Shown piece by piece: positions 2,152-26,048 of a stretch of DNA of 37,687 bases. The stretch covers positions 1 to 37,687 of the forward strand of contig DASXOL010000046.1 of the NCBI GenBank assembly GCA_036494295.1, in the 5' to 3' direction. Position 1 is the first letter of the stretch. The number at the start of each line of letters is the position of its first letter. The position numbers were made by a program, and so were the translations under genes. This stretch comes from Pseudonocardiaceae bacterium (lineage in GTDB: Bacteria > Actinomycetota > Actinomycetes > Mycobacteriales > Pseudonocardiaceae). The notes beneath the pieces were generated by a model. The model saw only the letters and a program-made list of their open reading frames with translations. It searched no databases and was not told the DNA's origin.

Positions 2152-3581
2152 ACGGCTACCGCGCGGCTGCGCATTCGCCCGAGCCGGGTCCCGCGGCGGA
2201 CGCGGATCTGGAGACCCTCACCGGCATCCGCACCGGCAAGGGGTCCTTCTATCCCGAGTACCGCAGTTCGGCGGAGCGGCTCGAGCGGGTCATCCAGGCA
2301 CTGGACCGCATCTCCCGCGCGCTGGTGCGCACCAGGGAAGGTCCGGAGACCTTGATCCGCGCGGTCGTGCAGGCCGCCGCCGAGCACCTCAGCGCGGAGT
2401 ACGTGCTGTTCGCGCTGGCCGACGGGTCGCTGCCGGACACCGCACTGCGCCACCTCGCGGTGGACTCCGACGGCGCCGAGATCAGGGACCTGAGCACGCT
2501 GCCGGAGGCGGTGCTGCGCCATCTCGCCCTGGTGCGCGCGGGCACGCTGCAGCCACACCCGCCCGGCTCGTCGCCGCTGCGGCACAGCCACGTGCCGGTG
2601 GCCCTCGACGGCGTCGTGGTCGGCGCCTTCGTGGCCTGGGCGGGCCGGCTGCGCGACATCGACGCCACCGACTCGTCGGTGCTGCGCATCCTGGCCGGCC
2701 AGACCGCGGCCGCGTTGCAGAACTCCTCGCTCTACCAGCGCAGCGAACAGCTGCTCGCGCAGACCGAGCAGCTGTACGACCGGGCCAGCCGGGACGCCGA
2801 GGATCTCGCGGCGCGCAACGCGGAACTGCAGCGCACCCAGGAGCAGCTGCTGGTCGCGCGCCAGCGCACGGTGCTGGACTCCGAGCGGCGGCGCATCGCC
2901 CGCGAACTGCACGACAGCGTGACCCAGTTCGCGCTGTCCGCGGGGATGCAGATCGAGATCTGCCGTGCCGAGGTGAGCGACCCCGGTCTGGCCGAGCGCC
3001 TGGACACCGCCAAGGCCCTCACCCGCAGGGCCGTCGAACAGCTCCGCTCGGCGATCTACACGCTGAACCACACCGAGACCGGGGAGACGCCGAGCCTCCC
3101 GGCGATGCTGAAGGAACTGGCCACCGTGCACGTGCCCGACGAGCTGCGGGTGGAGGTCCGCGTGGAGGGCGCGCCGGTGCCGCTGCCCGGACACGCGGAG
3201 CACTCGCTGCTGCGGGTGGCGGGCGAGGCGCTGTTCAACACCGCGGTGCACGCCCAGGCCCGGCGCGCCGTGGTGCGGCTGGCCTACCGCGCCGACCGGC
3301 TGCTGCTGTCCGTCGCCGACGACGGCCGGGGCGACCCGGAGACCGTCCGCAGGACACTGCGCGTCGCCGCGGCGGGCGATCTCGACGGCAGGCATCGCGG
3401 GCTGGCGAACATGCAGGCCCGCGCCCGGCAACTGGGCGGAACGCTGTCGGTGCGCAAGGCCACGCTGGGCGGGCTGCGCGTGCTGCTCAGCGTTCCCCTG
3501 CCGTTGCCGGACCAGGCCCAGCCGGACCGCGAGACAGCGACGCAGAACGCCAGCGCCCCACCAGGAGGTTCCGATGCCTGA
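2148..3581 (+). CDS. GAF-domain sensor histidine kinase, NarX/HisKA_3 type (MnoS-like)
   Basis: GTGA overlap with the ADH stop codon. H-box 'ERRRIARELHDSVTQ', a coiled-coil linker and a C-terminal HATPase region 'GRHRGLANMQARARQLGG'. Confidence 0.85.
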   Translation: MNGYRAAAHSPEPGPAADADLETLTGIRTGKGSFYPEYRSSAERLERVIQALDRISRALVRTREGPETLIRAVVQAAAEHLSAEYVLFALADGSLPDTALRHLAVDSDGAEIRDLSTLPEAVLRHLALVRAGTLQPHPPGSSPLRHSHVPVALDGVVVGAFVAWAGRLRDIDATDSSVLRILAGQTAAALQNSSLYQRSEQLLAQTEQLYDRASRDAEDLAARNAELQRTQEQLLVARQRTVLDSERRRIARELHDSVTQFALSAGMQIEICRAEVSDPGLAERLDTAKALTRRAVEQLRSAIYTLNHTETGETPSLPAMLKELATVHVPDELRVEVRVEGAPVPLPGHAEHSLLRVAGEALFNTAVHAQARRAVVRLAYRADRLLLSVADDGRGDPETVRRTLRVAAAGDLDGRHRGLANMQARARQLGGTLSVRKATLGGLRVLLSVPLPLPDQAQPDRETATQNASAPPGGSDA

Positions 3582-4263
3582 CACCGCCAGCCGCGTCCCG
3601 GCGCCCCGGCCGCACCATCCGGTGGGACAGCAGGTTCGCATCGTCCTGGTCGACGACCACGCGATCCTTCGCCAGGGTCTTCGCTCCGTGCTGGAACGCG
3701 AGCGGGACCTGCAGGTGGTGGGGGAGGCGTCCAGCGCGGAGGAGGCGCTGGCCGTGGTCGCGCGGGTCCGGCCCACCATCGTGCTGCTGGACCTGAAGCT
3801 CTCCGCAGGCGCCGACTCCGAGGGCCTGCAGGTCTGCCGCCGACTGGCCAACGCCCATCCGGGCATCGGCGTGCTGGTGCTCACCACCTTCCTGGACGAC
3901 CGGCTCGTGGTGGAGGCGGTGCACGCGGGTGCCCGCGGCTACGTGATCAAGGACGTCGACACCACCGAGCTCACCCGCGCGATCCGCGCGGTCTCCCGCG
4001 GGGAGAGCGCGTTCGACTCGCGCAGCGCCTCCGCGGTCATCCGCTCGCTCAACGGCGAGCAGCCCGGCGGCGGCCGGCTCACCGAACGCGAGCTGGAGGT
4101 GCTGCGGCTCCTGGCGCGCGGACAGTCCAACCGGGCCATCGGCAAGGAGCTGTTCATCTCCGAGACCACGGTGAAGTTCCACGTCGGCAAGATCATGCGC
4201 AAGCTGGAGGTCTCCCGCCGCGCCGAGGCCGTCTTCGCCGCCAGCAAGGCGGGCCTGATCTGA
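3574..4263 (+). CDS. NarL/LuxR-family response regulator (MnoR-like)
   Basis: Overlaps the kinase gene by 8 nt. Receiver motifs 'IVLVDDH' and 'LLDLKL'. C-terminal LuxR HTH 'LTERELEVLRLLARGQSNRAIGKELFISETTVKFHV'. Confidence 0.9.
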   Translation: MPDTASRVPAPRPHHPVGQQVRIVLVDDHAILRQGLRSVLERERDLQVVGEASSAEEALAVVARVRPTIVLLDLKLSAGADSEGLQVCRRLANAHPGIGVLVLTTFLDDRLVVEAVHAGARGYVIKDVDTTELTRAIRAVSRGESAFDSRSASAVIRSLNGEQPGGGRLTERELEVLRLLARGQSNRAIGKELFISETTVKFHVGKIMRKLEVSRRAEAVFAASKAGLI

Positions 4264-7520: not shown

Positions 7521-8429
7521 CTACGGCCCCGCGTCGATCACGAGCCAGCCGCCGTGGTGTTCGGTCACCTCGTACGGCAGGCCGGTCTCGGCGCCGAGGC
7601 CGTCCAGGTCGGCCAGGTCGAAGGTGCGGACGTGCCCGTAGACCGCGGTCGGCTCCGCTTCGAACGGCACGGCGATCACCACCCGGCACCGGGCCACCCG
7701 CAGCGCCTCCGCGAGCGCCATCGCGCCGTGTGCCGGGTCCAGGTGCTCGAGCAGGTGGATCATCGTGACGGTGTCCACGCTGCGGTCGGCCAACGGTACC
7801 CGCGCCGCGTCGCAGACCACAGTGGACAGCGATCTGCCCAGCCTCCGCGCGACCGTGGCCAGCAGCTGCACGGTTCCGGGGCACAGGTCCGAGGCGATCA
7901 CCTGGTGCCCGCTGTCGGCCAGGCGCAGCGCGAGGAAACCGAAGCAACTACCCAGGTCCAGCACCCGCCTTCCGGTCACGAGCTCCTTCGCCCGCGCCGC
8001 GACCGGAGCGAACGCCGCGACGCTGCCCCCGGTCCGGGTGGCCCCGGGATGGGCGAGCGCGGCGAGGGTGTTGGCGTAGAACACCGACCACGCGGTCACC
8101 GGTTCGCTGATCGTGGAGCGCACCACCCCGGTGAACACCCGGCGGAAGTCCTCCGGGCCGTCCAGCAGACCGGACGAGCCCAGCTCCGCGGAGACGATGC
8201 CGGCCAGGTCGTCGTCGAGCTCGTCGGGGAACAACCGGTGCAGCACCACGAGTCCCTGCGCGGTCCGGTGGATCCGGAAGTGCTCGGTGACCGCGTCCGG
8301 CGCGCGGCCGCCGAGCAACCGCACCGGCACCGCTTCGCGGCGGTCGTGGCAGACCGTGACCCGGCCGTCGCTCCACCGCCCCGGATGCCCCGGAGCCAGT
8401 GCGTCCATCGTGGTGGTCGGGGTCATCAC
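7521..8429 (-). CDS. mftM: Class I SAM-dependent methyltransferase, MftM-like (mycofactocin oligosaccharide methyltransferase candidate)
   Basis: SAM motif I 'RVLDLGSCFGFLALRLA' and acidic loop 'VIASDL'. The extended N-terminal domain is typical of MftM. It is the last gene of the mno operon and overlaps the vwa stop codon (GTGATG). An alternative start is ATG 8426. Confidence 0.7.
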   Translation of the reverse strand: MMTPTTTMDALAPGHPGRWSDGRVTVCHDRREAVPVRLLGGRAPDAVTEHFRIHRTAQGLVVLHRLFPDELDDDLAGIVSAELGSSGLLDGPEDFRRVFTGVVRSTISEPVTAWSVFYANTLAALAHPGATRTGGSVAAFAPVAARAKELVTGRRVLDLGSCFGFLALRLADSGHQVIASDLCPGTVQLLATVARRLGRSLSTVVCDAARVPLADRSVDTVTMIHLLEHLDPAHGAMALAEALRVARCRVVIAVPFEAEPTAVYGHVRTFDLADLDGLGAETGLPYEVTEHHGGWLVIDAGP

Positions 8430-11267: not shown

Positions 11268-11273
11268 GGAACC

Positions 11274-12634: not shown

Positions 12635-12681
12635 GTCTTGAGATTGAGCGTCTGTCTTGAGATTGGCCTGTCTTGCGATTC
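12635..12681. promoter_or_regulatory. Three direct repeats GTCTTGAGATTG / GTCTTGAGATTG / GTCTTGCGATTC upstream of mno (candidate response-regulator operator)
   Basis: Copies lie at 12635-12646, 12654-12665 and 12670-12681, which is 70-115 nt upstream of the mno start codon. I did not see this 12-mer elsewhere in the window. Confidence 0.45.
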
Positions 12682-13036
12682 GCGTTGACCGCGCCGATAC
12701 CGGCCGACGGCGGCCGGATGAAATAGCGCACCGGCGTGGTGAGGCCGAAGTTAAGTCCGCGCCGATTCGGGCGGAACCCTTCGCGGGCCGAACCGCGCGC
12801 ACGGACACCGCAGACTGCACGACCGGGCCCCCACGCCCCGTCCGGACAGACAGCCCCCCGGCGGCGAACCTGCCTGTTGCGGGCGTGGCTGCCTGCTCAG
12901 GGGTGCCCGGTCGCGCCGGTCGGCCCCCTCCGAACGGGCCGTTGTCCGGTGGCCGCCGGGTGCCATAGCGTCGATGTGAGCCCGGTCGCAGAAGTCGGCC
13001 CGCCTGAAATTCATCCAGTCCGCAGGAGGCGATCCC

Positions 13037-13144
13037 ATGGCACAGATCGACAATCCGCAGGCCGACGGCGAGAGCCCGGACGACGAGCTGGTGGAAACAC
13101 TGGTCGAAGAGGTCTCCATCGACGGCATGTGCGGGGTCTACTGA
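13037..13144 (+). CDS. mftA: Mycofactocin precursor peptide MftA (35 aa)
   Basis: Translation by hand gives MAQIDNPQADGESPDDELVETLVEEVSIDGMCGVY*. The C-terminal IDGMCGVY is the MftA hallmark. AGGAGG at 13025-13030. The ORF sits directly upstream of mftB and mftC and is not in the supplied track because it is too short. Confidence 0.93.
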   Translation: MAQIDNPQADGESPDDELVETLVEEVSIDGMCGVY

Positions 13145-13151
13145 TCACGCC

Positions 13152-13469
13152 GTGGAGGCATTCGATCCCGCCCGGCCGTACCGCAAGTCCGCTCAGGTGG
13201 CATTGCGCCCGGAGTCGTTCGGCGCGTTGGCCTACCACTTCGGTACCCGGCGGTTGTCGTTTCTGAAGACCCCGACCCTGGTCGAGGTGGTGACCGGACT
13301 GGAGCGCCACGACGACGTGCACGCCACCCTGGCCGCGGCGGGCGTGCCGGACCGGCAGCGGCGCGCCTACCTGGCCGCGCTGGCCGAACTGGCGGGCACC
13401 GGCACCATCGAGCGCCGCCCCGGCGAAGTCCCCAGTGACGAAGTCCCCAGTGAAGCGAGGCACGCGTGA
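13152..13469 (+). CDS. mftB: Mycofactocin biosynthesis chaperone MftB (PqqD-like RRE)
   Basis: 'ALRPESFGALAYHFGTRRLSFLK' PqqD-like fold signature. It starts 7 nt after mftA and has a GTGA overlap with mftC. Confidence 0.85.
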   Translation: MEAFDPARPYRKSAQVALRPESFGALAYHFGTRRLSFLKTPTLVEVVTGLERHDDVHATLAAAGVPDRQRRAYLAALAELAGTGTIERRPGEVPSDEVPSEARHA

Positions 13470-14647
13470 AGCTCACCGAGCACTTCCAGCACGGCCTGGC
13501 CGCCCCGATCTGTCTGACCTGGGAGCTGACCTACGCCTGCAACCTGGCCTGCGTGCACTGCTTGTCCTCCTCCGGGCGGCGGGACCCGCGGGAGCTCTCG
13601 ACCGACGAGTGCAAGGCCGTGATCGACGAGCTGGAACGGATGCAGGTGTTCTACGTGAACATCGGCGGCGGGGAGCCGACCGTCCGCTCGGACTTCTGGG
13701 AGCTGGTGGAGTACGCGGTCGCCCACCACGTCGGGGTCAAGTTCTCCACCAACGGCGTGCGGATCACCCCGGAGCGGGCCCGCCGGCTGGCCGGCAGCGA
13801 CTACGTCGACGTCCAGATCTCGCTCGACGGCGCCACCGCCGAGGTCAACGACGCGGTGCGCGGCGAGGGTTCCTTCGACACCGCGCTGCGCGCGATGGCC
13901 AACCTGCACGACGCCGGGTTCGGCGAGTTCAAGATCAGCGTGGTGATGACCCGGCACAACATCGGCCAGCTCGACGAGTTCAAGGCGATCGCGGACCGGT
14001 TCGGCGCCCAGCTGCGGATCACCAGGCTGCGCCCCTCCGGGCGCGGCGCGGACACCTGGGACGAGCTGCATCCCACCGCGGCGCAGCAGGTGGAGCTCTA
14101 CGACTGGCTGGTCGTCCGCGGCGAGTCGGTGCTCACCGGCGACTCGTTCTTCCACCTCTCCGCGCTGGGTGATCCGCTGCCCGGGCTGAACCTGTGCGGC
14201 GCGGGCCGGGTGGTGTGCCTGATCGACCCGGTGGGCGACGTCTACGCCTGCCCGTTCGCCATCCACGAGGAGTTCCTCGCGGGCAACGTCCGCTCCCCCG
14301 GCGGCTTCCAGCAGGTGTGGCGGCACTCCGAGCTGTTCGCGGACCTGCGCACCCCGCAGACCGGCGGTGCGTGCACCTCCTGCCGGCACTACGACTCCTG
14401 CCAGGGCGGCTGCATGGCGGCCAAGTTCTTCACCGGCCTGCCGCTGGACGGGCCGGACCCGGAATGCGTGCAGGGCTACGGCGAGGCCGCGCTGGCCTCG
14501 GTGGCGGCAGGCACCGCGCCGCGCTCCACCGTGGACCACTCCAGGAGCGCGCCGAGAAAGAACAGCGGCCCGGTTCCGGTGCAGATCGGGTTCGGCAGGC
14601 CGGACCGCGCATGCGACGAGAACCCGCTGGCCGGCCTGCGGATCTGA
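13466..14647 (+). CDS. mftC: Mycofactocin radical SAM/SPASM maturase MftC
   Basis: 'ELTYACNLACVHC' (CxxxCxxC). C-terminal SPASM cysteines 'CGAGRVVCLIDPVGDVYACPF' and 'CTSCRHYDSCQGGC'. Confidence 0.92.
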   Translation: MKLTEHFQHGLAAPICLTWELTYACNLACVHCLSSSGRRDPRELSTDECKAVIDELERMQVFYVNIGGGEPTVRSDFWELVEYAVAHHVGVKFSTNGVRITPERARRLAGSDYVDVQISLDGATAEVNDAVRGEGSFDTALRAMANLHDAGFGEFKISVVMTRHNIGQLDEFKAIADRFGAQLRITRLRPSGRGADTWDELHPTAAQQVELYDWLVVRGESVLTGDSFFHLSALGDPLPGLNLCGAGRVVCLIDPVGDVYACPFAIHEEFLAGNVRSPGGFQQVWRHSELFADLRTPQTGGACTSCRHYDSCQGGCMAAKFFTGLPLDGPDPECVQGYGEAALASVAAGTAPRSTVDHSRSAPRKNSGPVPVQIGFGRPDRACDENPLAGLRI

Positions 14648-14657
14648 CGGGCGCGCC

Positions 14658-16619
14658 ATGACATCGCTGGTCGAACCGTTCGAGCTGCGCGGCAGGCAGG
14701 CACCGAGCCGCGTGCTGTTCGGCCCGCACGAGACGAACCTGGCCCGGCGCAGGGAGATCTCCGATCGGCACGTGGCGTACTACGCGCAGCGCGCCGAGGG
14801 CGGCGCCGGGGTGATCGTCACCGAGACCGCCAGCGTGCATGACTCGGACTGGCCCTACGAGCGGGCTCCGCGAGCCGCCGACGCGGCCGAGGGCTGGCAG
14901 GCCACGGTCGCGGCCTGCCGCCCGCACCGGACGCTGGTGCTGGCCGGCCTCGGGCACAGCGGCTCACAGGGTTCTTCGGCGTTCCACCAGCGGGCGTTGT
15001 GGGCGCCGTCGCGGGTGCCGGACGTGGCCAGCCGCGAGGTGCCGATGGAGCTGGAGGACGCCGACATCGCGGAGCTGCTCGACGGGTTCGCCGCGGCGGC
15101 GCGGCTGGCCGGGCGGGCGGGCACCGACGGTGTCGAGATCAACGCGGGCCAGCACAGCCTGCTGCGCCAGTTCCTCTCCGGGCTCACCAACCAGCGCGGC
15201 GACGGATACGGCGAGGACCGGGCCCGGTTGCTGCGCGAGGTCCTCACCGCGGTCCGCGCGGCGCTCGGCGACGAGCGGGTGCTCGGGCTGCGGCTGTCCT
15301 GCGACGAGCAGGCCCCGTGGGCGGGCATCACCCCCGAGCAGGCCGCCGAGCACGTCGACGTGCTGGCCGAACTGGTCGACTACCTGGTCGTGGTGCGCGG
15401 CTCCGCGATGGCCGTGTCGGCCACCCGGCCCGACCTGCACACCGAGCCCGGGTTCAACATCGAGCTCTGCAAGCAGCTGCGTGACGCGGCGCAGGGTGGA
15501 ACCGCGGTGGTGCTGCAGGGCAGCGTCGTCGATCCCGCGATGGCGCAGCAGGCGCTGGACGACGGCGTCGCCGACCTGGTGGAGATGACCAGGGCGCAGC
15601 TCGCCGCTCCCGATCTCGTCGCGCTGGTGTGCGCGGGGCACCCGGAGCGGATCCGCCCCGCCACCCTGTCCAACCAGCACAGCCAGGTGCGGGACAACCG
15701 CAACCCGATCATCTCCGACGAGGGCGAGCCGGGCGCCGGGCACGAGACGGAAGAACCGCCGGTGCAGGGGCGCGACCCGGTGGCCCGCGAGGTGCTCGTC
15801 GTGGGCGGCGGACCGGCCGGGCTGGAGGCCGCCAGGGTGCTCGCGCTGCGCGGGCACCGGGTGCGCCTGGCCGAACGCTCCGGCCGGCTCGGCGGGGCGC
15901 TGCGGCTCGCGGCGCAGGTCGGCGGCCGGGCCCGGATGGGGCTGCTCGCCGACTGGCTGGAAGCCGAGGTGCGCCGTCTCGGCGTCGAGATCGAACTGGA
16001 GCGCGAGATCGGTCCCGGCGACCTGGCCGGGTCCTCGGAGGATCGGGCGGTCGTGATCGCCACCGGAGCGGTCGGCGCCCCGGCGCCCTTCGCGGTCCGG
16101 GACGGCGCCTGCGTGCGCACCGCGGCCGAACTGATGGCCGCCGTGGCGCGGACCGGCTCCACCGAGGCGGCGCTGGCCGAGCTGCCCGACGGGCCGGTGG
16201 TGGTCCGCGACCCGGTCGGCGACTGGGTGGGTGTGGGGGTCGCGGAGCAGGTCGCCGCCGCGGGCCGGCCCTGCGCGCTGAGCACCCCGGACCAGATCGC
16301 GGGCACCCAGCTCTCGCTCACCGGTGACCTGGCCGCGGCGAACGCCCGGCTGGCGCAGGCCGGGGTGGTCCGTGAGCTGCGCACCGTGGTGCGCGCGGCC
16401 GGTGACGGGCATGCGCTGCTGCACGACCCGCTGACCGGCGAGGACCGCAAGGTCGACTGCGCCGTCCTGGTCGACTGCGGGCACCGGCTGCCCGACGAGA
16501 CGCTGGACGGCCCGTACCGGGTGGGTGACTGCGTGGCGCCCAGGACGGTCTACCAGGCCGTCCTGGAAGGACGTCGCACCGCGCTGGCAGTCGGCGCCGG
16601 GCAGGGGAGTCCGCGATGA
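14658..16619 (+). CDS. FadH/OYE-family flavin oxidoreductase, paralogue 1 (Fe-S ligands lost)
   Basis: OYE-like FMN barrel 'LFGPHETNL...YYAQRAEGGAGVIVTE' and C-terminal 'VLVVGGGPAGLEAARVLALRGHRVRLAER'. The true start is ATG 14658. The track ORF 14367 start is an out-of-context extension across mftC. Confidence 0.85.
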   Translation: MTSLVEPFELRGRQAPSRVLFGPHETNLARRREISDRHVAYYAQRAEGGAGVIVTETASVHDSDWPYERAPRAADAAEGWQATVAACRPHRTLVLAGLGHSGSQGSSAFHQRALWAPSRVPDVASREVPMELEDADIAELLDGFAAAARLAGRAGTDGVEINAGQHSLLRQFLSGLTNQRGDGYGEDRARLLREVLTAVRAALGDERVLGLRLSCDEQAPWAGITPEQAAEHVDVLAELVDYLVVVRGSAMAVSATRPDLHTEPGFNIELCKQLRDAAQGGTAVVLQGSVVDPAMAQQALDDGVADLVEMTRAQLAAPDLVALVCAGHPERIRPATLSNQHSQVRDNRNPIISDEGEPGAGHETEEPPVQGRDPVAREVLVVGGGPAGLEAARVLALRGHRVRLAERSGRLGGALRLAAQVGGRARMGLLADWLEAEVRRLGVEIELEREIGPGDLAGSSEDRAVVIATGAVGAPAPFAVRDGACVRTAAELMAAVARTGSTEAALAELPDGPVVVRDPVGDWVGVGVAEQVAAAGRPCALSTPDQIAGTQLSLTGDLAAANARLAQAGVVRELRTVVRAAGDGHALLHDPLTGEDRKVDCAVLVDCGHRLPDETLDGPYRVGDCVAPRTVYQAVLEGRRTALAVGAGQGSPR

Positions 16620-18571
16620 GTTACCAGTACCTGTTCCGTCCGCTGCGGCTCGGCCCGCTGGTGCTGCGCAACCGCATCGTGTTCGCCGCGCACCTGACGA
16701 ACTACGCGCAGGACGGCCTGCCCTCGGCGCAGCACGCGGCCTACTACGCGGCGCGGGCGGCGGGCGGCGTCGGGCTGATCATCACCGAGGAGCACTCCAC
16801 CCACCCCACCGACTGGCCCTACGAGAAGCTCATCCACGGCTTCCACCACAACGTGATCCCCGGCTACCGGCGGATCACCGAGGCGGTGCACGCCCACGAC
16901 GTGCCGATCCTGGCCCAGCTCAACCACAACGGCGGCCAGGCCTCCAGCATGTACTCGCGGCTGCCGGTGTGGGCACCGAGCGCGGTGCCCGATCGGATGT
17001 TCCGCGAGGTGCCCAAGGCCATCACGGTGGACGAGATCGCCGAGGTCGTCGCCGGGTACGGACTGGTCGCCGAGCACTGCGTCGAGGGCGGCTTCGACGG
17101 CGTGGAGCTGCAGTGCTCGCACTCCTCGATCGTGCGCGGATTCCTCTCCCCGGCCACGAACGTCCGCACCGACCGCTACGGCGGAGCGCTGGCGAACCGG
17201 GCGCGGATCCTGCTGGAGATCGTGGCCGCGGTGCGCGAGGCCATCGGGCCGGACCGGGTGCTGGGGGTGCGGATCTGCGGTGACGAGCTGATCGAGGGCG
17301 GCACCACTCTCGACGACGCGGTCGACGTGGCGAAGCTGGTCGAGGCGCACGGCAAGGTCGACTACGTCAACACCTCGATCGGGGTGGCCACCGCGACGCT
17401 GTACATGATCGAGGCGTCGATGCACATCCCGCCCGGGTACGCCATGTTCATCCCGGCCGCGCTGCGCAAGGCGGTCGACCTGCCGGTGATCGGGGTGGGC
17501 CGGTTCAAGGACCCGGTGCAGGCCGACCGGGCGCTGGCCGAGGGGCACGCCGACCTGATCGGCGTGGTGCGCGGCCAGATCGCCGACGCCGACTTCGCGG
17601 CGAAGGCCAGGGCCGGGCATGCCACCGAGATCCGCACCTGCCTGTCGTGCAACCAGGAATGCGTCGGGCGGATGGGCCTGAACCGCTGGCTGGGCTGCAT
17701 CGAGAACCCGCGCACCGGCAAGGAGAGCGTGCCGATCCCGGCGCCGACCGTGCGCGGACGCCGCGTGCTGGTGGTCGGCGGCGGGCCCGGCGGGCTGCAG
17801 GCCGCGGCCACCGCCGCCCGCCAGGGACACCACGTCACGCTGCTCGAACGCGCCCGCGACACCGGTGGCCAGGCCGCGGTCGCGGCCAGCGTGCCGAGCC
17901 GCGCCGAGTTCCTCGACGTGGTGCGCAACCTGCTCGCCGAGTGCCTGCGCCTCGGCGTCGACATCCACACCGGCACCGCGGCCACGGTCGAGACGGTCCG
18001 CGCGGCGGCGCCCGACGTGGTGGTGCTCGCCACCGGGGCCCGCCCGCAGCCGACCTGGTGGGCGGGCGGCCTCGACCGCGTCGTCGACGTCCGTGACGTC
18101 CTGGAGGGCCGCGCCGCCCCGGAGGGCGACGTGCTGGTCGTCGACGAGCTGGGCTTCCACCAGGCCACCTCCACGGCCGAGGTGCTCGCCGACCGGGGCT
18201 GCGCCGTCGAGGTGTCCACCCCGGGGATGGTCGTCGGCCAGGACCTCGGGGTGACCCTGGACATGGAGACCTGGACCATGCGGGCGCACGCCAAGGGCAT
18301 CGTGCAGCGCACCGACGAGGTGGTGCTGGGCGCGGCCGCGGCCGACGACGGGACCGGGCTGGTACTGCAGGTGCTGCGCCACATGACCGGGGAGACCGTC
18401 GAACGCCGCTACGACTGGGTGGTCTGCGCGGTGCCGCAGGCACCGGAGGACGAGTTGTGGCACGGGCTGAAGGGCTCCGGCCTGCCGGTGCACCGGGTCG
18501 GTGACTGCCTGGCCCCCCGCCGGGCGCACGCCGCGGTCGTCGAGGGCCACCGGGTGGGGGTGGCCCTGTGA
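16616..18571 (+). CDS. FadH/OYE-family flavin oxidoreductase, paralogue 2 (with 4Fe-4S motif)
   Basis: ATGA overlap with paralogue 1. FMN barrel region, 'CLSCNQECVGRMGLNRWLGC' (Cx2Cx3Cx11C as in 2,4-dienoyl-CoA reductase and trimethylamine dehydrogenase) and 'VLVVGGGPGGLQAA'. Confidence 0.88.
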   Translation: MSYQYLFRPLRLGPLVLRNRIVFAAHLTNYAQDGLPSAQHAAYYAARAAGGVGLIITEEHSTHPTDWPYEKLIHGFHHNVIPGYRRITEAVHAHDVPILAQLNHNGGQASSMYSRLPVWAPSAVPDRMFREVPKAITVDEIAEVVAGYGLVAEHCVEGGFDGVELQCSHSSIVRGFLSPATNVRTDRYGGALANRARILLEIVAAVREAIGPDRVLGVRICGDELIEGGTTLDDAVDVAKLVEAHGKVDYVNTSIGVATATLYMIEASMHIPPGYAMFIPAALRKAVDLPVIGVGRFKDPVQADRALAEGHADLIGVVRGQIADADFAAKARAGHATEIRTCLSCNQECVGRMGLNRWLGCIENPRTGKESVPIPAPTVRGRRVLVVGGGPGGLQAAATAARQGHHVTLLERARDTGGQAAVAASVPSRAEFLDVVRNLLAECLRLGVDIHTGTAATVETVRAAAPDVVVLATGARPQPTWWAGGLDRVVDVRDVLEGRAAPEGDVLVVDELGFHQATSTAEVLADRGCAVEVSTPGMVVGQDLGVTLDMETWTMRAHAKGIVQRTDEVVLGAAAADDGTGLVLQVLRHMTGETVERRYDWVVCAVPQAPEDELWHGLKGSGLPVHRVGDCLAPRRAHAAVVEGHRVGVAL

Positions 18572-19605
18572 CCGGCAATGCTGTGACCGACCTGCCTGCC
18601 GGCCCGCTGGCGGTGGTGGTCATCCGCGACGGCGTCCCGCCGCTCGGCGGTGACGAGGCCGTCGCCGAGGCGGGCGGCGCCGCGCTGCTGGTCGGATCCG
18701 GCACCAGGGACGCGGTGACCGAGCTGCCCGCGCTGCGCACCGCGTGGTGCGCCGAGTGGGGCCACTACCTGCCGGGTACCTGGGCCGCGCGGTTGGCCGC
18801 ACTGGTGGGGCAGTGCTCGCCGGTGCTCCTCCCGGCCTCCCCGGACGGCCGCGACCTCGCGCCCCGGCTCGCCGCCGAGCTGGACCGGCCCCTGCTGGGC
18901 GGCGCGGGCACGGTCCGCGACGACGGTGCCGACCTGCTGCGCTGGGGCGGGCGGGTCACCGTGCCGTGCTGCCCCGACGGCCCGTTCGTCGCCACCCTGC
19001 TGCCCGGGGTGCGGGGCGCCGAGGCGGCCGACGGCGAACCCCAGGTGCACGAGGTCTCCGCCGAAGCGGCGCCGGACAAGATCGCCGACGCGCGCGTCCT
19101 CGAGGTGCTGCCCGCCGATCCGGCCACCGTCGATCTCGCCGAGGCGCCACGGATCCTCGGTGCCGGAGCGGGCTTGTGCCGGGGCGCCGAGGGCGGGGTG
19201 GAGGCGGTGGCGCTGCTCGGGCGGGTCGCCGCGGCGCTCAGCGCCTCGGTGGGCGCCACCAGGGTGGTGACCGACGCGGGCTGGGCCGACTACGAGCGGC
19301 AGATCGGCACCACCGGCGTCGTGGTGGACCCCGACCTCTACGTGGCGTTCGGTGTCTCCGGCGCGGCACAGCACGTCGGCGGGCTCGGCGCGCCCCGTCA
19401 CGTCGTCTCGGTGAACCGTGACGCGCACTGCCCGATGACCGCCATGGCCGGTCTCGGCATCGTCACCGACGCCGCCGAACTGCTCCGCGAGCTCGCCGAC
19501 CGGCTGCTCGCAGCGCCGGGGTCGTCTGCGTCCCCTGAGTCGGGGAAGTCGGGGAAATCGGGGGAGTCGCAGCACTCTGGAGACGAGGTGAACGCCGGTG
19601 GCTGA
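18568..19605 (+). CDS. Electron transfer flavoprotein alpha subunit (FixB-like)
   Basis: GTGA overlap with OYE-2. C-terminal FAD-domain signature 'LYVAFGVSGAAQHVGG' and 'VVSVNRDAHCPM'. Low-complexity tail 'SGKSGKSGES'. Confidence 0.8.
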   Translation: MTGNAVTDLPAGPLAVVVIRDGVPPLGGDEAVAEAGGAALLVGSGTRDAVTELPALRTAWCAEWGHYLPGTWAARLAALVGQCSPVLLPASPDGRDLAPRLAAELDRPLLGGAGTVRDDGADLLRWGGRVTVPCCPDGPFVATLLPGVRGAEAADGEPQVHEVSAEAAPDKIADARVLEVLPADPATVDLAEAPRILGAGAGLCRGAEGGVEAVALLGRVAAALSASVGATRVVTDAGWADYERQIGTTGVVVDPDLYVAFGVSGAAQHVGGLGAPRHVVSVNRDAHCPMTAMAGLGIVTDAAELLRELADRLLAAPGSSASPESGKSGKSGESQHSGDEVNAGG

Positions 19606-20968
19606 GCACGCAGGTCCCGGGTCCCGCTCGGTCACCGCACCGCGGTCCGACCCGCGGCAGGTGCTGGACGCGGTGGTGGTCGGCGCGGGCCCGGCGGGCT
19701 CGGCCGCGGCGATCGAGCTGGCCAGGGCCGGCCACTCGGTCGCGCTCGTGGAGCGGGGTCCGTTCGCGGGTTCGAAGAACGTCTACGGCGGCGTGGTCTA
19801 CGGGCGGATCCTCGACGAGCTGGTGCCGCAGTGGTGGGAGGAGGCTCCCGTCCAGCGGTGGGTCACCCGCCGCGCCACGATGATCCTCACCGCGGAGCAG
19901 TCGCTCACCGTCGACTTCCGCACCACGGCCTGGGGTGCGCCGCCCTACAACGGGGCCACCGCGCACCGCCCGGACTTCGACGCCTGGCTGGCGGGCAAGG
20001 CGGAGCAGGCCGGCGCCGTGCTCGTGCCCTCCACGGTGGCCACCAGCCTGCTGCGCGACCAGGACGGCCGGGTCGCCGGGGTGCGCACCGACCGCGAGGA
20101 CGGCGACCTGGCCGCCCGCGTGGTGATCGCCTGCGACGGGGTGAACTCGTTCCTGGCCAAGGAAGCCGGCCTGTTCAGCGCCTCGGACGTCGCCGAGCAG
20201 GCCGAGCACACCACGCTCGGGGTCAAGGAGACGCTCGCGCTGGACCGCGGGCTGCTGGAGGAGCGCTTCGGCCTGTCCGGCTGCGAGGGGCTGGACATCG
20301 AGATGCTGGGCTGCACCAGGGGCATCCCCGGCGGCGGGTTCCTCTACACCAACCTCGACTCGATCTCGCTGGGCATGGTGCTCAGCCTGCCCGGCCTGGG
20401 CGCGGCGGGGGTGCGGCCCGAGGAGCTGATCGCCGACCTCAAGGAGCACCCGACCATCGCGCCGTGGGTGCGGGGCACCGAGCTGGTGGAGTACTCCGCG
20501 CACCTGATCCCCGAGGGCGGCTACGACACCATGCCCGAACTGGTCGGCGACGGGATGCTGGTCTGCGGCGACGCGGCCGCGATGTGCCTCGCGGCCGGGA
20601 TCTGGCTGGAGGGCGTCAACTTCGCGATCGGGTCGGGCATGTACGCCGGACGCGCCGCCGCCGACGCCCTGCGCGCCGGCGACACCTCCAAGGCGGGCCT
20701 CGCGGGATACCGGAAGCGGCTGGAGAACTCCTTCGTGCTCGCCGACCACCGCAAGCTGCGCAACGCACCCGGGCTGATCCTGTCGGAGCGGATGCAGCAG
20801 CGCTATCCAGGGCTGGTCTGCGACCTGGTGGAAGGCATGTTCCGGGTGGACAACCCGCATCCCAAGCCCGGGTTGCGGACCCTGTTGCGCCGCACCGCGA
20901 AACAGCACGGCGTGCGCCTGCGCGACCTGGCCCGCGACGGCCTGAGCGCCCTGCGGAGCTTCGGATGA
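19598..20968 (+). CDS. fixC: FixC-like FAD-dependent ETF:quinone oxidoreductase
   Basis: 8-nt overlap with ETF-alpha. 'DAVVVGAGPAGSAAAIELARAGHSVALVERG', 'VIACDGVNSFLAKE' and 'LVCGDAA'. Confidence 0.85.
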   Translation: MAEHAGPGSRSVTAPRSDPRQVLDAVVVGAGPAGSAAAIELARAGHSVALVERGPFAGSKNVYGGVVYGRILDELVPQWWEEAPVQRWVTRRATMILTAEQSLTVDFRTTAWGAPPYNGATAHRPDFDAWLAGKAEQAGAVLVPSTVATSLLRDQDGRVAGVRTDREDGDLAARVVIACDGVNSFLAKEAGLFSASDVAEQAEHTTLGVKETLALDRGLLEERFGLSGCEGLDIEMLGCTRGIPGGGFLYTNLDSISLGMVLSLPGLGAAGVRPEELIADLKEHPTIAPWVRGTELVEYSAHLIPEGGYDTMPELVGDGMLVCGDAAAMCLAAGIWLEGVNFAIGSGMYAGRAAADALRAGDTSKAGLAGYRKRLENSFVLADHRKLRNAPGLILSERMQQRYPGLVCDLVEGMFRVDNPHPKPGLRTLLRRTAKQHGVRLRDLARDGLSALRSFG

Positions 20969-20991
20969 GGGCTCTTCAAGAACCACAAACC

Positions 20992-21048
20992 CCCCTCCGC
21001 GGTGTCCGTAACTGCTACCCACCGGGGGACCACCCACCAGCGGAGGGG
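20992..21048 (+). promoter_or_regulatory. Hairpin pairing an anti-SD-like CCCCTCCGC with the fixX Shine-Dalgarno GCGGAGGGG
   Basis: 9-nt perfect complementary arms at 20992-21000 and 21040-21048. The right arm contains the GGAGG located 6 nt before ATG 21054. This is the largest intergenic gap (85 nt) in the mftA-mftE gene string. Confidence 0.35.
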
Positions 21049-21053
21049 CAGCC

Positions 21054-21359
21054 ATGAGCGTGCCGGACCGGCGCTACCGGGACATCGCCTTCGACGACCG
21101 GATGTCCACCGTGGACTTCCGGGTGGCCGAACGGGCACACATCACCGTGGACACCGACGTCTGCCGATCGTGCACGACCAAGGCGTGCGTGCACGCCTGC
21201 CCGGCGAACCTGTTCGTCCCCACCGCGGAAGGCGGCATCCTGTTCAACTACGAGCAGTGCTTCGAATGCGGCACCTGCTACCTGGTCTGCAACGGCGAGG
21301 GCGCGATCAGCTGGACCTATCCCGACGGCGGCCAGGGCGTCGTCTTCCGCAAGGGGTGA
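21054..21359 (+). CDS. fixX: FixX-like ferredoxin
   Basis: 'CRSCTTKACVHACP' and 'CFECGTCYLVC'. About 100 aa, the typical FixX size. Confidence 0.85.
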   Translation: MSVPDRRYRDIAFDDRMSTVDFRVAERAHITVDTDVCRSCTTKACVHACPANLFVPTAEGGILFNYEQCFECGTCYLVCNGEGAISWTYPDGGQGVVFRKG

Positions 21360-21363
21360 GCCG

Positions 21364-22308
21364 TTGACCACCGCCGAGCCGCCGACAGACCAGCCGCCGA
21401 CAAGCCAGCCGCCGACAGACCAGCCGCCGACAGGCCAGCCGACGAAGACGGTCCTGGCGGCGCTGCGCTTCGTCGACCAACGCGCCACAGTGGACCCGCT
21501 GACCGGCGCCGTCCGCACCGACGAACGCACCAGCGGCCCGAGCGAGGCCGACCGCTGCGCCCTGGAACACGCCCTGCGGCTGGCCGCGCGGCTCGGCGGC
21601 CGCTGCGTGGCGGTCACCGTCGGCCCGCCCGCCGCCGACGCGATGCTGCGCGACGCCCTCGCCGCCGGTGCCGACGCGGTGCTGCGGATCCAGGCCGGCG
21701 ACCCGGACGCCGACCACGACCACCTCGACGAGGCAGCCACCGCGGACGCCCTGATCGACGGGTTCCAGCAGCGGTACGGCCTGCCGGATCTGGTCATCTG
21801 CGGAGACCACTCGGCCGATCGCGGCGCCGGATCCACACCCGCCTACCTGGCCCATCGGCTGGGCGCCGCGCAGGCACTCGGGCTGCTCGAGCTCGCCCAG
21901 CAGGACGGGGAACTGCGGGCGCTGCGCAGAATCGACGGTGGCCGCCGCGAGCGTCTCGCCGTGGGGCTGCCCGCGGTGTGCTCGGTGGAGCCGACCACGG
22001 TCCGGTTGCGCCGGGCCGCGCTGCCCGCGGTGCTGGCTGCCCGCACCGCGACGGTTCCGGTCGTCACCACCCGGCAACGTCCGCCCCGCGCACCCCACAC
22101 CGGGCCGGCCCGCCCGTACCGGCCCCGCCCCCGGGTGCTGCCCGCCCCGGTCGGCGACGACCCCCGCACCAGGGTGCTGGCGCTGACCGGAGCTCTGGTG
22201 GAGCGCGAGCCGCCCAGGGTGGTCACCCCGGCGAGCGCCGCCGAGGCCGCCGACGAACTGCTCGGCTTCCTCCGCCAGCACGGCTACCTCGACGACGAGG
22301 CGCGGTGA
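21364..22308 (+). CDS. Electron transfer flavoprotein beta subunit (FixA-like) with N-terminal (PPTxQ)4 repeat
   Basis: 'RTSGPSEADRCALEHALRLA', 'AVTVGPPAADAMLRDALAAGAD' and 'VICGDHSADRGAGSTPAYLA'. The TTG start at 21364 is the only start codon upstream of the conserved core, so start confidence is moderate. Confidence 0.75.
   Translation: MTTAEPPTDQPPTSQPPTDQPPTGQPTKTVLAALRFVDQRATVDPLTGAVRTDERTSGPSEADRCALEHALRLAARLGGRCVAVTVGPPAADAMLRDALAAGADAVLRIQAGDPDADHDHLDEAATADALIDGFQQRYGLPDLVICGDHSADRGAGSTPAYLAHRLGAAQALGLLELAQQDGELRALRRIDGGRRERLAVGLPAVCSVEPTTVRLRRAALPAVLAARTATVPVVTTRQRPPRAPHTGPARPYRPRPRVLPAPVGDDPRTRVLALTGALVEREPPRVVTPASAAEAADELLGFLRQHGYLDDEAR
21376..21444 (+). repeat. 15-nt in-frame tandem repeat (CAGCCGCCGACANNC x4 plus a partial copy)
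   Basis: Read directly. It encodes PPTDQ PPTSQ PPTDQ PPTGQ at the ETF-beta N-terminus. Confidence 0.9.
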
Positions 22309-23009
22309 GCCTGGCCGGGTCCCGCTGGCCCGAGCTCGACCGCGGCGAGGACCTCACCGTGCTCGTGCCGGTGGGCTCGGTGGAGCAGCACGGGCCGCAT
22401 CTGCCGCTGGACACCGACACCCGGATCGCCGAGGCGGTGGCCCGACAGGTCTCCTGGCCCGGCGTCCTGGTGGCGCCGCCGATCAGCTACGGCGCCGCAG
22501 GCGAGCACGAGAGCTTCCCCGGCACGATCTCGATCGGGCACGACGCGATGCAGGCGGTGCTCGTCGAGTTCGGCCGCTCGGCCTGCCGCTGGGCGGCCCG
22601 CCTGGTCTTCGTCAACGGTCACGGCGGCAACGTGGCCGCACTCGGCGCGGCGGTGCGGCGGCTGCGCGCGGAGGGCCGCGACGTGGCCTGGCACGCCTGT
22701 GTCGCGCCGGGCGCGGACCTGCACGCCGGCCGCACGGAGACGTCGCTGCTGCTCGCGATCGCCCCCGCGGACGTCCGGATGAGCCAGGCGCGGCCGGGCA
22801 ACACCGGCGGCCTCGCCGAGTTGCTGCCCGCCATGCGCGCGGGCTCGGTGCGGGCGGTGAGCCCGTGCGGAGTCCTGGGTGACCCCACCGGCGCCACGGC
22901 GCAGGAGGGCAGCTCGCTGCTGGCCACGCTGGGCGCCGCACTGCGCGGCGCGCTGGCGCGCTGGCAGCCGGGCGAGTCCGGTCTGTTGACCACGCCGGAA
23001 GATTTGTAA
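22305..23009 (+). CDS. mftE: Mycofactocin biosynthesis peptidyl-dipeptidase MftE (creatininase family)
   Basis: GTGA overlap with ETF-beta. Creatininase-fold motifs '[18 protein letters not shown]', 'GHDAM', 'NGHGGN' and 'HAGRTETS'. The track's 21978 start is a shadow extension. Confidence 0.85.
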
Positions 23010-26041: not shown

Positions 26042-26048
26042 GCACCAG

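Follow-up and report, generated by a model that had tools for sequence, protein, structure and literature searches.

Organisation of the mycofactocin locus

The window, that is the whole 37,687-nt stretch of DNA analysed here, carries on one strand between positions 13037 and 23009 a mycofactocin cluster with the order mftA-mftB-mftC-OYE1-OYE2-etfA-fixC-fixX-etfB-mftE. Gene identities were assigned by comparing NCBIfam HMM scores with curated cut-offs, and the cluster was set against about 110 related mycofactocin loci. The features considered are as follows.

2148..4263, + strand: madS/madR two-component system (NF047786, 606 bits, cut-off 500; NF047785, 354 bits, cut-off 300)
7521..8429, - strand: mftM, mycofactocin oligosaccharide methyltransferase (NF041255, 356 bits, cut-off 200)
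8426-9961, - strand: madC VWA protein (MadC, 286 bits, under cut-off)
9964-11184, - strand: madB AAA ATPase (MadB, 386 bits, under cut-off)
11274-12731, - strand: mdo, NDMA-type methanol/alcohol dehydrogenase (TIGR04266, 677 bits, cut-off 625)
13037..13144, + strand: mftA, mycofactocin precursor peptide, 35 aa, C-terminus IDGMCGVY (TIGR03969, 47.6 bits, cut-off 25)
13152..13469, + strand: mftB, precursor-binding chaperone (TIGR03967, 107 bits, cut-off 33)
13466..14647, + strand: mftC, radical SAM/SPASM maturase (TIGR03962, 662 bits, cut-off 265)
14658..16619, + strand: OYE1, mycofactocin-system FadH/OYE oxidoreductase 1 (TIGR03996, 813 bits, cut-off 628)
16616..18571, + strand: OYE2, mycofactocin-system FadH/OYE oxidoreductase 2 (TIGR03997, 987 bits, cut-off 793)
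18568..19605, + strand: etfA, mycofactocin-associated ETF alpha subunit (NF038209, 439 bits, cut-off 240; PDB ETF alpha subunits match)
19598..20968, + strand: fixC-like ETF:quinone oxidoreductase, FAD (7KOE_C, E=6.9e-75; 2GMH ETF-QO, E=1.5e-20)
21054..21359, + strand: fixX-like ferredoxin (PRK15449, 53.9 bits, under cut-off 166; Fer4_9)
21364..22308, + strand: etfB, mycofactocin-associated ETF beta subunit (TIGR04503, 361 bits, cut-off 200)
22305..23009, + strand: mftE, AHDP-releasing peptidyl-dipeptidase (TIGR03964, 325 bits, cut-off 172)

FixC models scored the window fixC at 311-331 bits, below their cut-offs. FixX carries two cysteine motifs (CxxCxxxxCxxxCP and CxxCxxCxxxC), and the N-terminus of EtfB contains PPTxQ repeats.

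Read from the sequence, mftB and mftC meet at GTGA (13466), OYE1 starts with ATG at 14658 after a 10-nt gap, and the OYE1/OYE2 and OYE2/etfA junctions are ATGA at 16616 and GTGA at 18568, respectively. The GTG start of fixC (19598) lies within etfA, whose stop codon occupies 19603-19605, giving an 8-nt overlap. A further 85 nt separate fixC from fixX and 4 nt separate fixX from etfB, for which TTG at 21364 is the sole start 5' of the conserved EtfB domain, and etfB joins mftE at GTGA (22305). The gene order and junctions described in an earlier, sequence-only reading of this DNA were all borne out, as was its view of the module as real and tightly coupled. These overlaps and the absence of terminator-like sites are consistent with a single operon; the infA ribosomal-protein operon lies directly downstream. 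The six inserted genes are not, however, the single indivisible unit first supposed, since OYE pairs occur without ETF/FixCX in P. saturnea, L026, L034 and L036.

Distribution of the cluster variant

The locus, which comes from a Pseudonocardia-like actinobacterium, belongs to an already catalogued variant: dedicated NCBIfam models (TIGR03996, TIGR03997, NF038209 and TIGR04503) are passed by four of its six module genes, and the database families named in the sequence-only reading do exist. Gene order is identical in L106, L108 and L110; Pseudonocardia bannensis, Pseudonocardia sp. H11422 and a Streptomyces plasmid have it or are annotated with it, and Amycolatopsis and Saccharopolyspora show slightly changed versions. 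The rarity hinted at by the term 'non-canonical' is therefore misplaced, since cultured Pseudonocardia and Streptomyces plasmids are annotated with this order and the other two genera with a near-identical one. The 4-nt OYE2/etfA overlap is kept in L103, L104, L110 and L111. The OYE genes, each with a dedicated equivalog HMM, are always paired and always lie between mftC and mftE, with OYE1 directly after mftC except in L050, and no substrate-specific gene was conserved beside them in the compared loci.

Missing mft genes and neighbouring genes

HMM scans detected no mftD, mftF, mftG or mftR among the plausible genes of the window, tblastn (E<=1e-8) found no match to them in it, and a relaxed six-frame tblastn of the window with 22 reference sequences returned a best match of only E=0.01, which upholds their reported absence from the window. 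Absence of mftF and mftR is nevertheless not a trait of this cluster type, as mftF is nearby in 12 of the 14 long OYE loci. Because the window encodes mftM and the mftF of its relatives sits just downstream of mftE, a local rearrangement or window-edge effect probably accounts for the missing gene; mftM implies a glycosylated cofactor, and mftF is hence expected elsewhere in the genome.

Both mftM and the mdo/madB/madC/madS/madR set went unmentioned in the sequence-only reading. The mdo-madB-madC genes are divergent from mftA, an arrangement repeated in L102, L106 and L108. The product of mdo is likely a mycofactocin-reducing client enzyme with MadB and MadC as accessory proteins, and it is possible that madS/madR act as a regulator replacing the absent TetR-type mftR.

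Cofactor motifs of OYE1 and OYE2

OYE2 has a complete set of motifs (FMN barrel, C342-x2-C345-x3-C349-x11-C361 and GGGPGG), and its third domain reads 'DELGFHQ', without GxGxxG. No NAD(P)H-binding motif was found in OYE1 or OYE2. The PDB matches of OYE2 are NCR, FadH, histamine dehydrogenase (HADH) and trimethylamine dehydrogenase (TMADH), of which NCR and FadH score highest overall (261-267 bits). OYE2 carries Ser at the position of FadH Tyr166 and a His aligned with the TMADH/HADH His, and in the TMADH:ETF complex (1O94) the TMADH chain is homologous to OYE2 and the ETF chains to EtfA/EtfB. A FadH-type NADPH-dependent ene-reductase was considered for OYE2 and ruled out by the lack of an NADPH-binding GxGxxG and the Ser at the Tyr166 position.

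In the window OYE1, all four 4Fe-4S cysteines are substituted (A, S, S, D; about nt 15654-15725), and Ser stands where aligned solved homologs and OYE2 have an invariant Arg. These cysteines number 0/4 in the window, 1/4 in the named Pseudonocardia and 4/4 in 66 of the 120 closest homologs. The earlier description 'FMN barrel plus 4Fe-4S' thus fits OYE2 but not OYE1, and the proposed likeness to TMADH and histamine dehydrogenase is sustained by the FMN barrel, the OYE2 4Fe-4S motif, a Rossmann fold of ADP/FAD type and the absence of GxGxxG from the third domain. Loss of ETF is accompanied by divergence of OYE2, not OYE1: the Trp of DWPYE is invariant in 15 ETF-bearing OYE2s and is Arg in four of five ETF-less ones. 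OYE2 is probably the catalytic, ETF-facing subunit and OYE1 probably a non-exit or structural partner.

Relationship of the module to mftD and mftG

When only loci with 9 kb or more of downstream sequence are counted, a local MftD was present in all 13 without the OYE pair and in one of 14 with it (Fisher p=7.5e-7, uncorrected for phylogeny, the MftC tree being unresolved). The OYE pair fills the mftD slot, which in L052 holds MftD within the same mftM/mdo/mftABC context as in the window. Six Streptomyces MftC plasmids had no MftD-grade match anywhere on the replicon; the canonical cluster of Streptomyces sp. NBC_00080 (L109) has mftD and mftG. Similarly, 17 Saccharopolyspora clusters contain TIGR03997 and lack mftD, and S. 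erythraea produces MMFT-2, MMFT-2H2 and MMFT-3. MftD has previously been reported not to be universal among mycofactocin species (Haft 2011). OYE pairs without either ETF or a local mftD were found in L102, L026, L034 and L036.

L050, with a Rhodococcus-like gene order, encodes an MftD homolog (78% identity, by tblastn only) beside the OYE pair, and by HMM has OYE1 (1190 bits), OYE2 (1006 bits) and MftG (635 bits) with no ETF. Its OYE2 has Gln in place of the conserved His and, as in L062, a mycofactocin-dependent SDR is inserted between OYE1 and OYE2. The presence of MftD, MftG and the OYE pair together indicates that replacement of MftD and MftG is not obligatory, and, with the caveat of that Gln in OYE2, that the role of the pair is not simply that of either.

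ETF/FixCX was confined to loci with the OYE pair (10/14, versus 0/13 of those without). In a genome-wide table (eLife), Streptomyces sp. SAT1, S. yangpuensis and A. acidiphila are MftG-negative, as are 5/5 Saccharopolyspora and 9/10 Amycolatopsis, and the module is present in SAT1 (MftC WP_168720396 = L019), S. yangpuensis and A. acidiphila. Rhodococcus, an ETF-less OYE lineage, is MftG-positive in the same table. Pseudonocardia, grouped with it as an ETF-less OYE lineage, is also MftG-positive, at genus level only, the clusters of the five tabulated strains lying outside the comparison. Approximately 25% of MftC genomes lack MftG; for many of these (for example Nocardioides, Rubrobacter and Thermomicrobium) no module is known, so that a missing MftG is no specific mark of it.

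Proposed function of the module

Our preferred reading, put forward tentatively, is that a TMADH-like dehydrogenase takes the place of MftG, and probably of MftD, by passing electrons via ETF and FixCX to menaquinone. OYE1 and OYE2 would form one TMADH/histamine-dehydrogenase-like flavoprotein, with the active FMN site and, in this lineage, the sole 4Fe-4S cluster both on OYE2. Substrate would be oxidised at the OYE2 FMN, most likely at carbon 3 of the mycofactocin pyrrolidinone core, and electrons would move through the Fe-S cluster to the dedicated EtfA/EtfB, then through FixX with its two Fe-S clusters and the ETF:quinone oxidoreductase homolog FixC to menaquinone. This direction of flow, from dehydrogenase to ETF to quinone, is likely. 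Re-oxidising mycofactocinol (-255 mV) to mycofactocinone, the chain would deliver electrons to respiration, the job of MftG; in addition, the OYE pair would probably deaminate AHDP oxidatively and independently of O2 to premycofactocin, the job of MftD. Substitution for MftG appears to be an even prospect and substitution for MftD is equally finely balanced, while a module standing in for both is somewhat doubtful. The sequence-only reading had raised the two roles as separate hypotheses: the first gains from ETF/FixCX-bearing species being MftG-negative genome-wide and the second from the occupied mftD slot and local anti-correlation, although L050 shows that neither replacement is obligatory. 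The proposed chain does not explain the electron acceptor in the ETF-less OYE loci (P. saturnea, L026, L034 and L036), and six genes of respiratory electron transfer look like more than a biosynthetic step would need by itself. If true, the module would both complete mycofactocin and recycle the cofactor into respiration.

A respiratory link only, in which the OYE pair oxidises mycofactocinol for ETF/FixCX and menaquinone and AHDP is deaminated by MftD elsewhere or by an unrelated enzyme, would suit the MftG-negative genomes of ETF-bearing species, the ETF-QO homology of FixC, the favourable step from -255 mV to -74 mV and the catabolic flux for which a dedicated ETF/ETF-QO is fitted. It is unlikely, as it gives no account of the missing mftD in 13/14 long OYE loci versus its presence in 13/13 without OYE, the six MftD-less Streptomyces mft plasmids, or the ETF-less OYE pairs (L102, L026, L034, L036) that also lack a local mftD.

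TMADH and HADH belong to a family that performs oxidative C-N cleavage, with electrons leaving via Fe-S and ETF. The homology of OYE2 to this family, the occupied mftD slot with its local anti-correlation, and the local replacement of mftD even by OYE pairs without ETF would all suit a biosynthetic function only, in which the pair is an O2-independent AHDP deaminase, ETF/FixCX its private electron sink, and mycofactocinol is recycled otherwise. This account likens ETF/FixCX to the ferredoxin and reductase carried by biosynthetic clusters. We regard it as unlikely, because the complementarity of ETF and MftG is left unexplained, MftD is retained beside the OYE pair in L050 and the overall score of OYE2 is nearer to NCR and FadH than to amine dehydrogenases.

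It is quite improbable that the OYE pair acts on another metabolite (enoyl-CoA, steroid-like or amine), served by ETF/FixCX and with mycofactocin as partner or merely co-regulated. The combination of MftD, MftG and the pair in L050, the SDR inserted there and in L062, and the CoA thioesters, bile acids and bilirubin used by the nearest characterised homologs point that way, but the fixed mftC-mftE position, the constant pairing with dedicated equivalog HMMs, the lack of a conserved substrate-specific neighbour and the unaccounted mftD anti-correlation argue against it. FixABCX-style bifurcation (mycofactocinol to quinone plus low-potential ferredoxin) or reverse flow reducing mycofactocin is very improbable: FixC matches the bifurcating EtfABCX of T. 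maritima (7KOE) best, EtfA/EtfB score as highly against bifurcating (5OL2, 4KPU, 7KOE) as against non-bifurcating ETFs, and by our arithmetic the energetics allow it (2 x -255 mV roughly equals -74 mV plus about -436 mV), but no ferredoxin/flavodoxin partner or NADH site was found, and nothing specific speaks in favour.

Comparison with known systems

The closest known system is the catalogued FadH/OYE plus ETF variant (P. bannensis, Pseudonocardia sp. H11422, Amycolatopsis acidiphila, Saccharopolyspora antimicrobica and Streptomyces plasmids), with which the window shares passing scores for all four HMMs and overlapping junctions, including the 8-nt etfA/fixC overlap. It differs in lacking an adjacent mftF, SDR or TetR gene, in its position directly upstream of the infA operon and in an OYE1 with 0/4 Fe-S cysteines. 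Compared with the canonical mftR/mftABCDEF(G) cluster (Mycobacterium, Tsukamurella L020, Streptomyces sp. NBC_00080 L109), mftA/B/C/E are orthologous and mdo and mftM are likewise present, whereas mftD (LldD-like FMN enzyme) and mftG (GMC flavoprotein) are absent and the six-gene module occupies the mftD position.

With TMADH (1O94) and histamine dehydrogenase (3K30, 6DE6) the module enzyme shares a three-domain layout of FMN TIM barrel, CxxCxxxC...C 4Fe-4S motif, GxGxxG ADP/FAD-type domain and third domain without a dinucleotide motif, as well as the OYE2 His aligned with the active-site His and a co-encoded ETF as likely acceptor. In contrast to these, it has no cysteine for a covalent 6-S-cysteinyl FMN; it would combine two paralogs as a heterodimer instead of forming a homodimer, and its overall sequence is nearer to NCR and FadH. 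OYE2 has the same Fe-S motif spacing as FadH (1PS9) and NCR (6QKG), but lacks an NADPH-binding GxGxxG in its third domain and has Ser in place of the proton donor Tyr166 of FadH. FixABCX/EtfABCX systems (Thermotoga maritima 7KOE; nitrogen-fixation Fix) have ETF alpha/beta, FixC and a two-cluster FixX in common with the module, in which the order is instead etfA-fixC-fixX-etfB, FixC and FixX score under curated HMM cut-offs, and electrons would come from a co-encoded Fe-S flavoprotein instead of NADH.

Gene content of the mycofactocin locus

The window (72% GC) was mapped almost without gaps by combining frame-specific GC3 analysis with NCBIfam and Pfam scans. Ten plus-strand genes occupy 13037-23009: mftA, mftB, mftC, OYE1, OYE2, etfA, a FixC-like flavoprotein, a FixX-like ferredoxin, etfB and mftE, and eight of them passed dedicated mycofactocin equivalog models above the curated cut-offs. 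The gene order and every junction quoted in the sequence-only reading proved correct when read from the bases. MftA (35 aa) has the conserved C-terminus IDGMCGVY, and its gene is adjoined by those for the MftB chaperone and the MftC radical SAM/SPASM maturase, both well over their curated cut-offs. Directly 3' of mftC lies OYE1 (813 bits against TIGR03996, cut-off 628), followed by OYE2 (987 bits against TIGR03997, cut-off 793). EtfA (NF038209, 439 bits) and EtfB (TIGR04503, 361 bits) were likewise above cut-off, and between their genes lie those for FixC and FixX, whose HMM scores were below the equivalog cut-offs. EtfB starts with TTG and has a low-complexity N-terminal extension of PPTDQ/PPTSQ/PPTGQ repeats (21364-21450) that falls outside the family model.

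There were no terminator-like sites inside the ten-gene block, and promoter and terminator scans, Rfam and a tRNA search of the window returned nothing informative, consensus scans being weak in DNA of this GC content. By HMM scans and tblastn, MftD (TIGR03966) was not found beside mftC in the window, nor were the MftF glycosyltransferase, the MftG GMC oxidoreductase or the MftR TetR regulator found within it. A relaxed six-frame tblastn of the window with 22 reference MftD, MftF, MftG, MftR, TetR and SDR sequences gave a best E of 0.01, bearing out the earlier observation that mftD, mftF, mftG and mftR are missing from this stretch.

Relatives of the cluster

The locus is a further example of a known, database-defined cluster variant, and little in the window is new beyond an OYE1 without the Fe-S motif. 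A JGI metagenome contig matches the window, and among named organisms Pseudonocardia species come closest (68-70% identity for OYE1, 70-71% for EtfA). In P. bannensis (complete chromosome, L106) and Pseudonocardia sp. H11422 (L108), the order mftA-B-C-OYE1-OYE2-etfA-fixC-fixX-etfB-mftE is identical to that of the window, the upstream madC/madB/mdo genes are shared, and mftE is followed by a phosphodiesterase gene, mftF and an aldehyde-oxidoreductase operon. The same module, with a TetR gene upstream and SDR-mftF-mftE downstream, occurs in Amycolatopsis acidiphila (L103) and Saccharopolyspora antimicrobica (L104), with genes assigned by Pfam, and on the RefSeq-annotated Streptomyces plasmids L017, L019 and L111. 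Plasmid L110 has exactly the order of the window, and 8 of its 10 genes carry mycofactocin-specific RefSeq names. FixC and FixX are also encoded between mycofactocin-specific EtfA and EtfB in L017, L103, L104, L106, L108, L110 and L111. In five module-bearing MAG loci (L005, L006, L007, L010 and L014), etfB is followed directly by mftF, and an MftE homolog was not detected within ~15 kb. A 2024 genome-mining paper reported 17 Saccharopolyspora clusters without mftD but with TIGR03997. The literature search found no function assigned to the module genes.

Neighbouring genes and the location of mftF

A block that the sequence-only reading had not mentioned, mftM-madC-madB-mdo, runs divergently from mftA, and further genes lie to its left.

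Genes to the left of the mycofactocin cluster
1-720, left edge of the window: XdhC-type aldehyde-oxidoreductase maturation factor (scans)
853-4263, plus strand: MadS/MadR two-component system and an ErcA-like Fe-ADH (scans)
Within 4872-7340, between madR and mftM: HTH-XRE gene
6105-7340, between madR and mftM: DUF222/HNH endonuclease gene, in a region of raised GC skew
7521-12731 block, minus strand: mftM methyltransferase (356 bits, cut-off 200)
7521-12731 block, minus strand: madB- and madC-like genes (MadB and MadC scores below curated cut-offs)
7521-12731 block, minus strand: mdo, NDMA-type alcohol dehydrogenase (677 bits)

The mdo product, the Mad accessory proteins and MadS/MadR are likely a mycofactocin-reducing alcohol dehydrogenase with its accessories and regulator; mycofactocin is known to support alcohol metabolism in actinobacteria, mycobacteria included.

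MftM methylates the oligosaccharide built by MftF (PMC9679996); MftC, MftF and MftA were reported always to co-occur, MftF in perfect co-occurrence with MftC (Haft 2011). Because mftM is present, because of this co-occurrence and because the relatives carry mftF downstream, mftF is expected elsewhere in the source genome. The Pseudonocardia relatives carry the aldehyde-oxidoreductase operon after mftF, both of them 3' of mftE; as the window begins with the maturation factor of such an operon and carries the DUF222/HNH gene, the arrangement suggests that the source genome has been rearranged here, and mftF may be situated a short way past the left edge of the window.

On the other side, a small unannotated gene (23105-23608) between mftE and infA encodes a DUF1707 (SHOCT-like) domain (86 bits), a (PHQG)n stretch specified by six 12-nt tandem repeats (23336-23431) and a hydrophobic C-terminus. 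The stretch 23900-37686 holds a conserved infA-rpmJ-rpsM-rpsK-rpsD-rpoA-rplQ-truA block, which the cluster adjoins, and after it a type VII secretion locus resembling ESX-4 (eccE, eccB, mycP, eccD, eccC).

Cofactor motifs of the OYE pair, ETF and FixCX

OYE2 combines an FMN barrel, a FadH/NCR-type cysteine motif (C342-x2-C345-x3-C349-x11-C361) and a GGGPGG Rossmann motif. Its third domain reads 'DELGFHQ' at the position of the NADPH-binding GxGxxG of FadH, as in histamine dehydrogenase; serine stands at the position of the FadH Tyr166 proton donor, and a histidine aligns with the active-site His of TMADH and HADH. By these motifs OYE2 is not an NAD(P)H-dependent ene-reductase, and it resembles a dehydrogenase with electron exit via the Fe-S cluster. 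The cysteine for covalent 6-S-cysteinyl FMN (Cys30 in TMADH) is replaced by Leu in OYE2 and by Glu in OYE1.

OYE1 (14658-16619) is the more divergent paralog. All four of its 4Fe-4S cysteines are replaced, by A, S, S and D (motif at ~15654-15725), so that the description of the pair as an FMN barrel plus 4Fe-4S holds for OYE2 and fails for OYE1, where 0 of 4 cysteines are left. The A-S-S-D pattern is common to L034 and to the homologs P0001 and P0002, in every named Pseudonocardia OYE1 homolog listed the four positions read C-S-S-D, inside a conserved motif, and those of Amycolatopsis have mostly C-S-C-C; across the closest OYE1 homologs, 66 of 120 keep all four cysteines. The loss is thus lineage-wide in Pseudonocardia-type OYE1, and sequencing error or pseudogenisation was rejected as its cause, as an identical or similar pattern recurs in L034, P0001, P0002 and, within a conserved motif, in all named Pseudonocardia homologs listed. 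This clade of 'oxidoreductase 1' proteins probably does not consist of Fe-S proteins. OYE1 also has Ser in place of an Arg that is invariant across OYE2 and the aligned solved homologs (NCR, FadH, 6L6J and both histamine dehydrogenases).

Conservation of the pair differs with the presence of ETF. In ETF-bearing loci, conservation of OYE2 exceeds that of OYE1 by 10-16 identity points; this advantage is gone in the Pseudonocardia-type ETF-less loci, whose branch is long in the OYE2 tree though not in that of OYE1. The Trp of the DWPYE motif (OYE2 residues 66-70, window ~16811-16825) is present in 15 of 15 OYE2s from ETF-bearing loci, whereas 4 of 5 from ETF-less loci have Arg there, making it a candidate ETF-docking or specificity residue. 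Use of NAD(P)H by the ETF-less OYE enzymes was rejected, since all of them have the same third-domain motif. For an amine-oxidising, ETF-reducing role, the observations are co-encoding with ETF and a conserved 4-nt OYE2/etfA overlap.

The best solved match of FixC was the ETF:quinone oxidoreductase of the T. maritima EtfABCX complex (7KOE_C, E=7e-75), followed by mammalian ETF-QO, and FixX has 8 Cys in two four-cysteine motifs. By PDB similarity, EtfA and EtfB scored alike against bifurcating and non-bifurcating ETFs.

Distribution of MftD, the OYE pair and ETF/FixCX

Fifteen genome loci retrieved via EtfA, 80 metagenome loci centred on MftC, plasmid loci and complete-genome loci were classified by tblastn with reference proteins.

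Types of mycofactocin locus
Type A, canonical (L018, L020, L109 and many metagenome loci): MftD present; OYE pair absent; ETF/FixCX absent; MftG often present
Type B (L050): MftD present (tblastn, 78%); OYE pair present (HMM); ETF/FixCX absent; MftG present (HMM)
Type C (P. saturnea L102, L026, L034, L036): MftD not found locally; OYE pair present; ETF/FixCX absent
Type D (the window and ~20 others): MftD not found locally; OYE pair present; ETF/FixCX present

When the comparison was restricted to loci extending 9 kb or more 3' of mftC, MftD was present in 13 of 13 without OYE versus 1 of 14 with OYE (Fisher p=7.5e-7, without correction for phylogeny), and in the same set ETF/FixCX accompanied 10 of 14 OYE loci versus 0 of 13 others. 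L052 shares the mftM/mdo/mftABC context of the window and has MftD in the slot; the best 120 matches to this highly conserved MftD were nearly all metagenome proteins. Among Streptomyces plasmids, that of NBC_00080 follows the canonical pattern in full, mftD and mftG included, and six others had no MftD-grade match across the replicon. In an MftC neighbour-joining tree (unsupported, deep nodes unresolved), OYE loci were interleaved with MftD loci and did not obviously form one clade.

The type B locus L050 encodes mftB-C-D-OYE1-SDR-OYE2-mftE-mftF-mftG in one block (9600-21170), with OYE1, OYE2 and MftG confirmed by HMM, and this order equals the gi-number order listed by Haft for Rhodococcus jostii RHA1. 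A S. erythraea gene order inferred from sequential accession numbers was dropped as unreliable. The L050 OYE2 has Gln at the otherwise invariant His of 'CSHSS', unique among the loci compared (n=1). Two further arrangements were seen. In L086 (6592-7217), the OYE1 N-terminus is fused to the OYE2 C-terminus, with the look of a deletion remnant, and mftD is also missing locally. In L027 and L049, neither MftD nor the OYE pair was found within 5-8 kb 3' of mftC, and a tandem set of two or three SDR genes comes after mftC.

Relationship to MftG and a possible role for the module

About 25% of mycofactocin genomes are without MftG, and what replaces it has been posed as an open question (eLife 2025). 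In the supplement to that study, which scored MftG genome-wide, three species with a verified module are MftG-negative: Streptomyces sp. SAT1, whose MftC accession matches the L019 protein, S. yangpuensis (L111) and A. acidiphila (L103). Also MftG-negative are 5 of 5 Saccharopolyspora, 9 of 10 Amycolatopsis and Prauserella marina. MftG is scored as present in every Rhodococcus species of the table, a genus placed as a whole in type B, and likewise in the five Pseudonocardia strains tabulated. P. saturnea is the only ETF-less Pseudonocardia example among the loci collected here; at genus level, we infer that ETF-less Pseudonocardia are MftG-positive. S. erythraea makes MMFT-2, MMFT-2H2 and MMFT-3 (PMC9679996), and a module-bearing genus therefore has at least one member that forms normal oxidised and reduced cofactor.

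The sequence-only reading had proposed the module as a respiratory link replacing MftG, or the OYE pair as a substitute for MftD, and its interpretation is supported in part. The MftG-negative status of ETF-bearing species favours the first proposal and the anti-correlation of OYE with MftD favours the second, but L050 has MftG and MftD together with the OYE pair, and type B loci therefore indicate that neither replacement is obligatory. The type C loci (P. saturnea L102, L026, L034 and L036) have the OYE pair without ETF/FixCX.

Set beside the observed gene identities, gene order, cofactor motifs and distribution across loci, the reading that we tentatively favour is a TMADH-like dehydrogenase delivering electrons through ETF and FixCX to menaquinone, acting on mycofactocinol and probably on AHDP, the amine precursor. 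OYE1 and OYE2 would together form the dehydrogenase, with the OYE2 FMN handing electrons to the OYE2 4Fe-4S cluster, and ETF and FixX/FixC relaying them to menaquinone. The simplest explanation of the two complementarities, that of the OYE pair with MftD and that of ETF/FixCX with MftG, would be an enzyme that acts on carbon 3 of the mycofactocin core, oxidising mycofactocinol and probably AHDP as well. The MftD reaction is O2-dependent. It is rather more doubtful that a single OYE1/OYE2 enzyme does two jobs, oxidising AHDP (the amine form) in an O2-free biosynthesis and mycofactocinol in recycling, and so replaces both mftD and mftG. Reported E0' values are -255 mV for PMFT and -74 mV for menaquinone (eLife 2025).

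The OYE pair is thus a candidate for the role of MftD, and ETF/FixCX for that of MftG. This locus type is a candidate for both gaps, the MftG-less genomes and the mftD-less Saccharopolyspora clusters of a mycofactocin-making genus. If the reading is true, a private ETF-FixCX wire to menaquinone would explain the respiratory link in MftG-less actinomycetes.

Comparison with known systems

FadH differs from OYE2 in that its third domain binds NADPH and its proton donor is a Tyr. With enzymes of the TMADH/histamine dehydrogenase type, OYE2 shares the FMN barrel, the 4Fe-4S motif, the ADP-type domain and the lack of an NAD(P)H motif in the third domain, although the covalent-FMN Cys is found in neither OYE1 nor OYE2. 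With FixABCX/EtfABCX systems, the window shares a FixC ETF:quinone oxidoreductase and a FixX ferredoxin encoded together with ETF.
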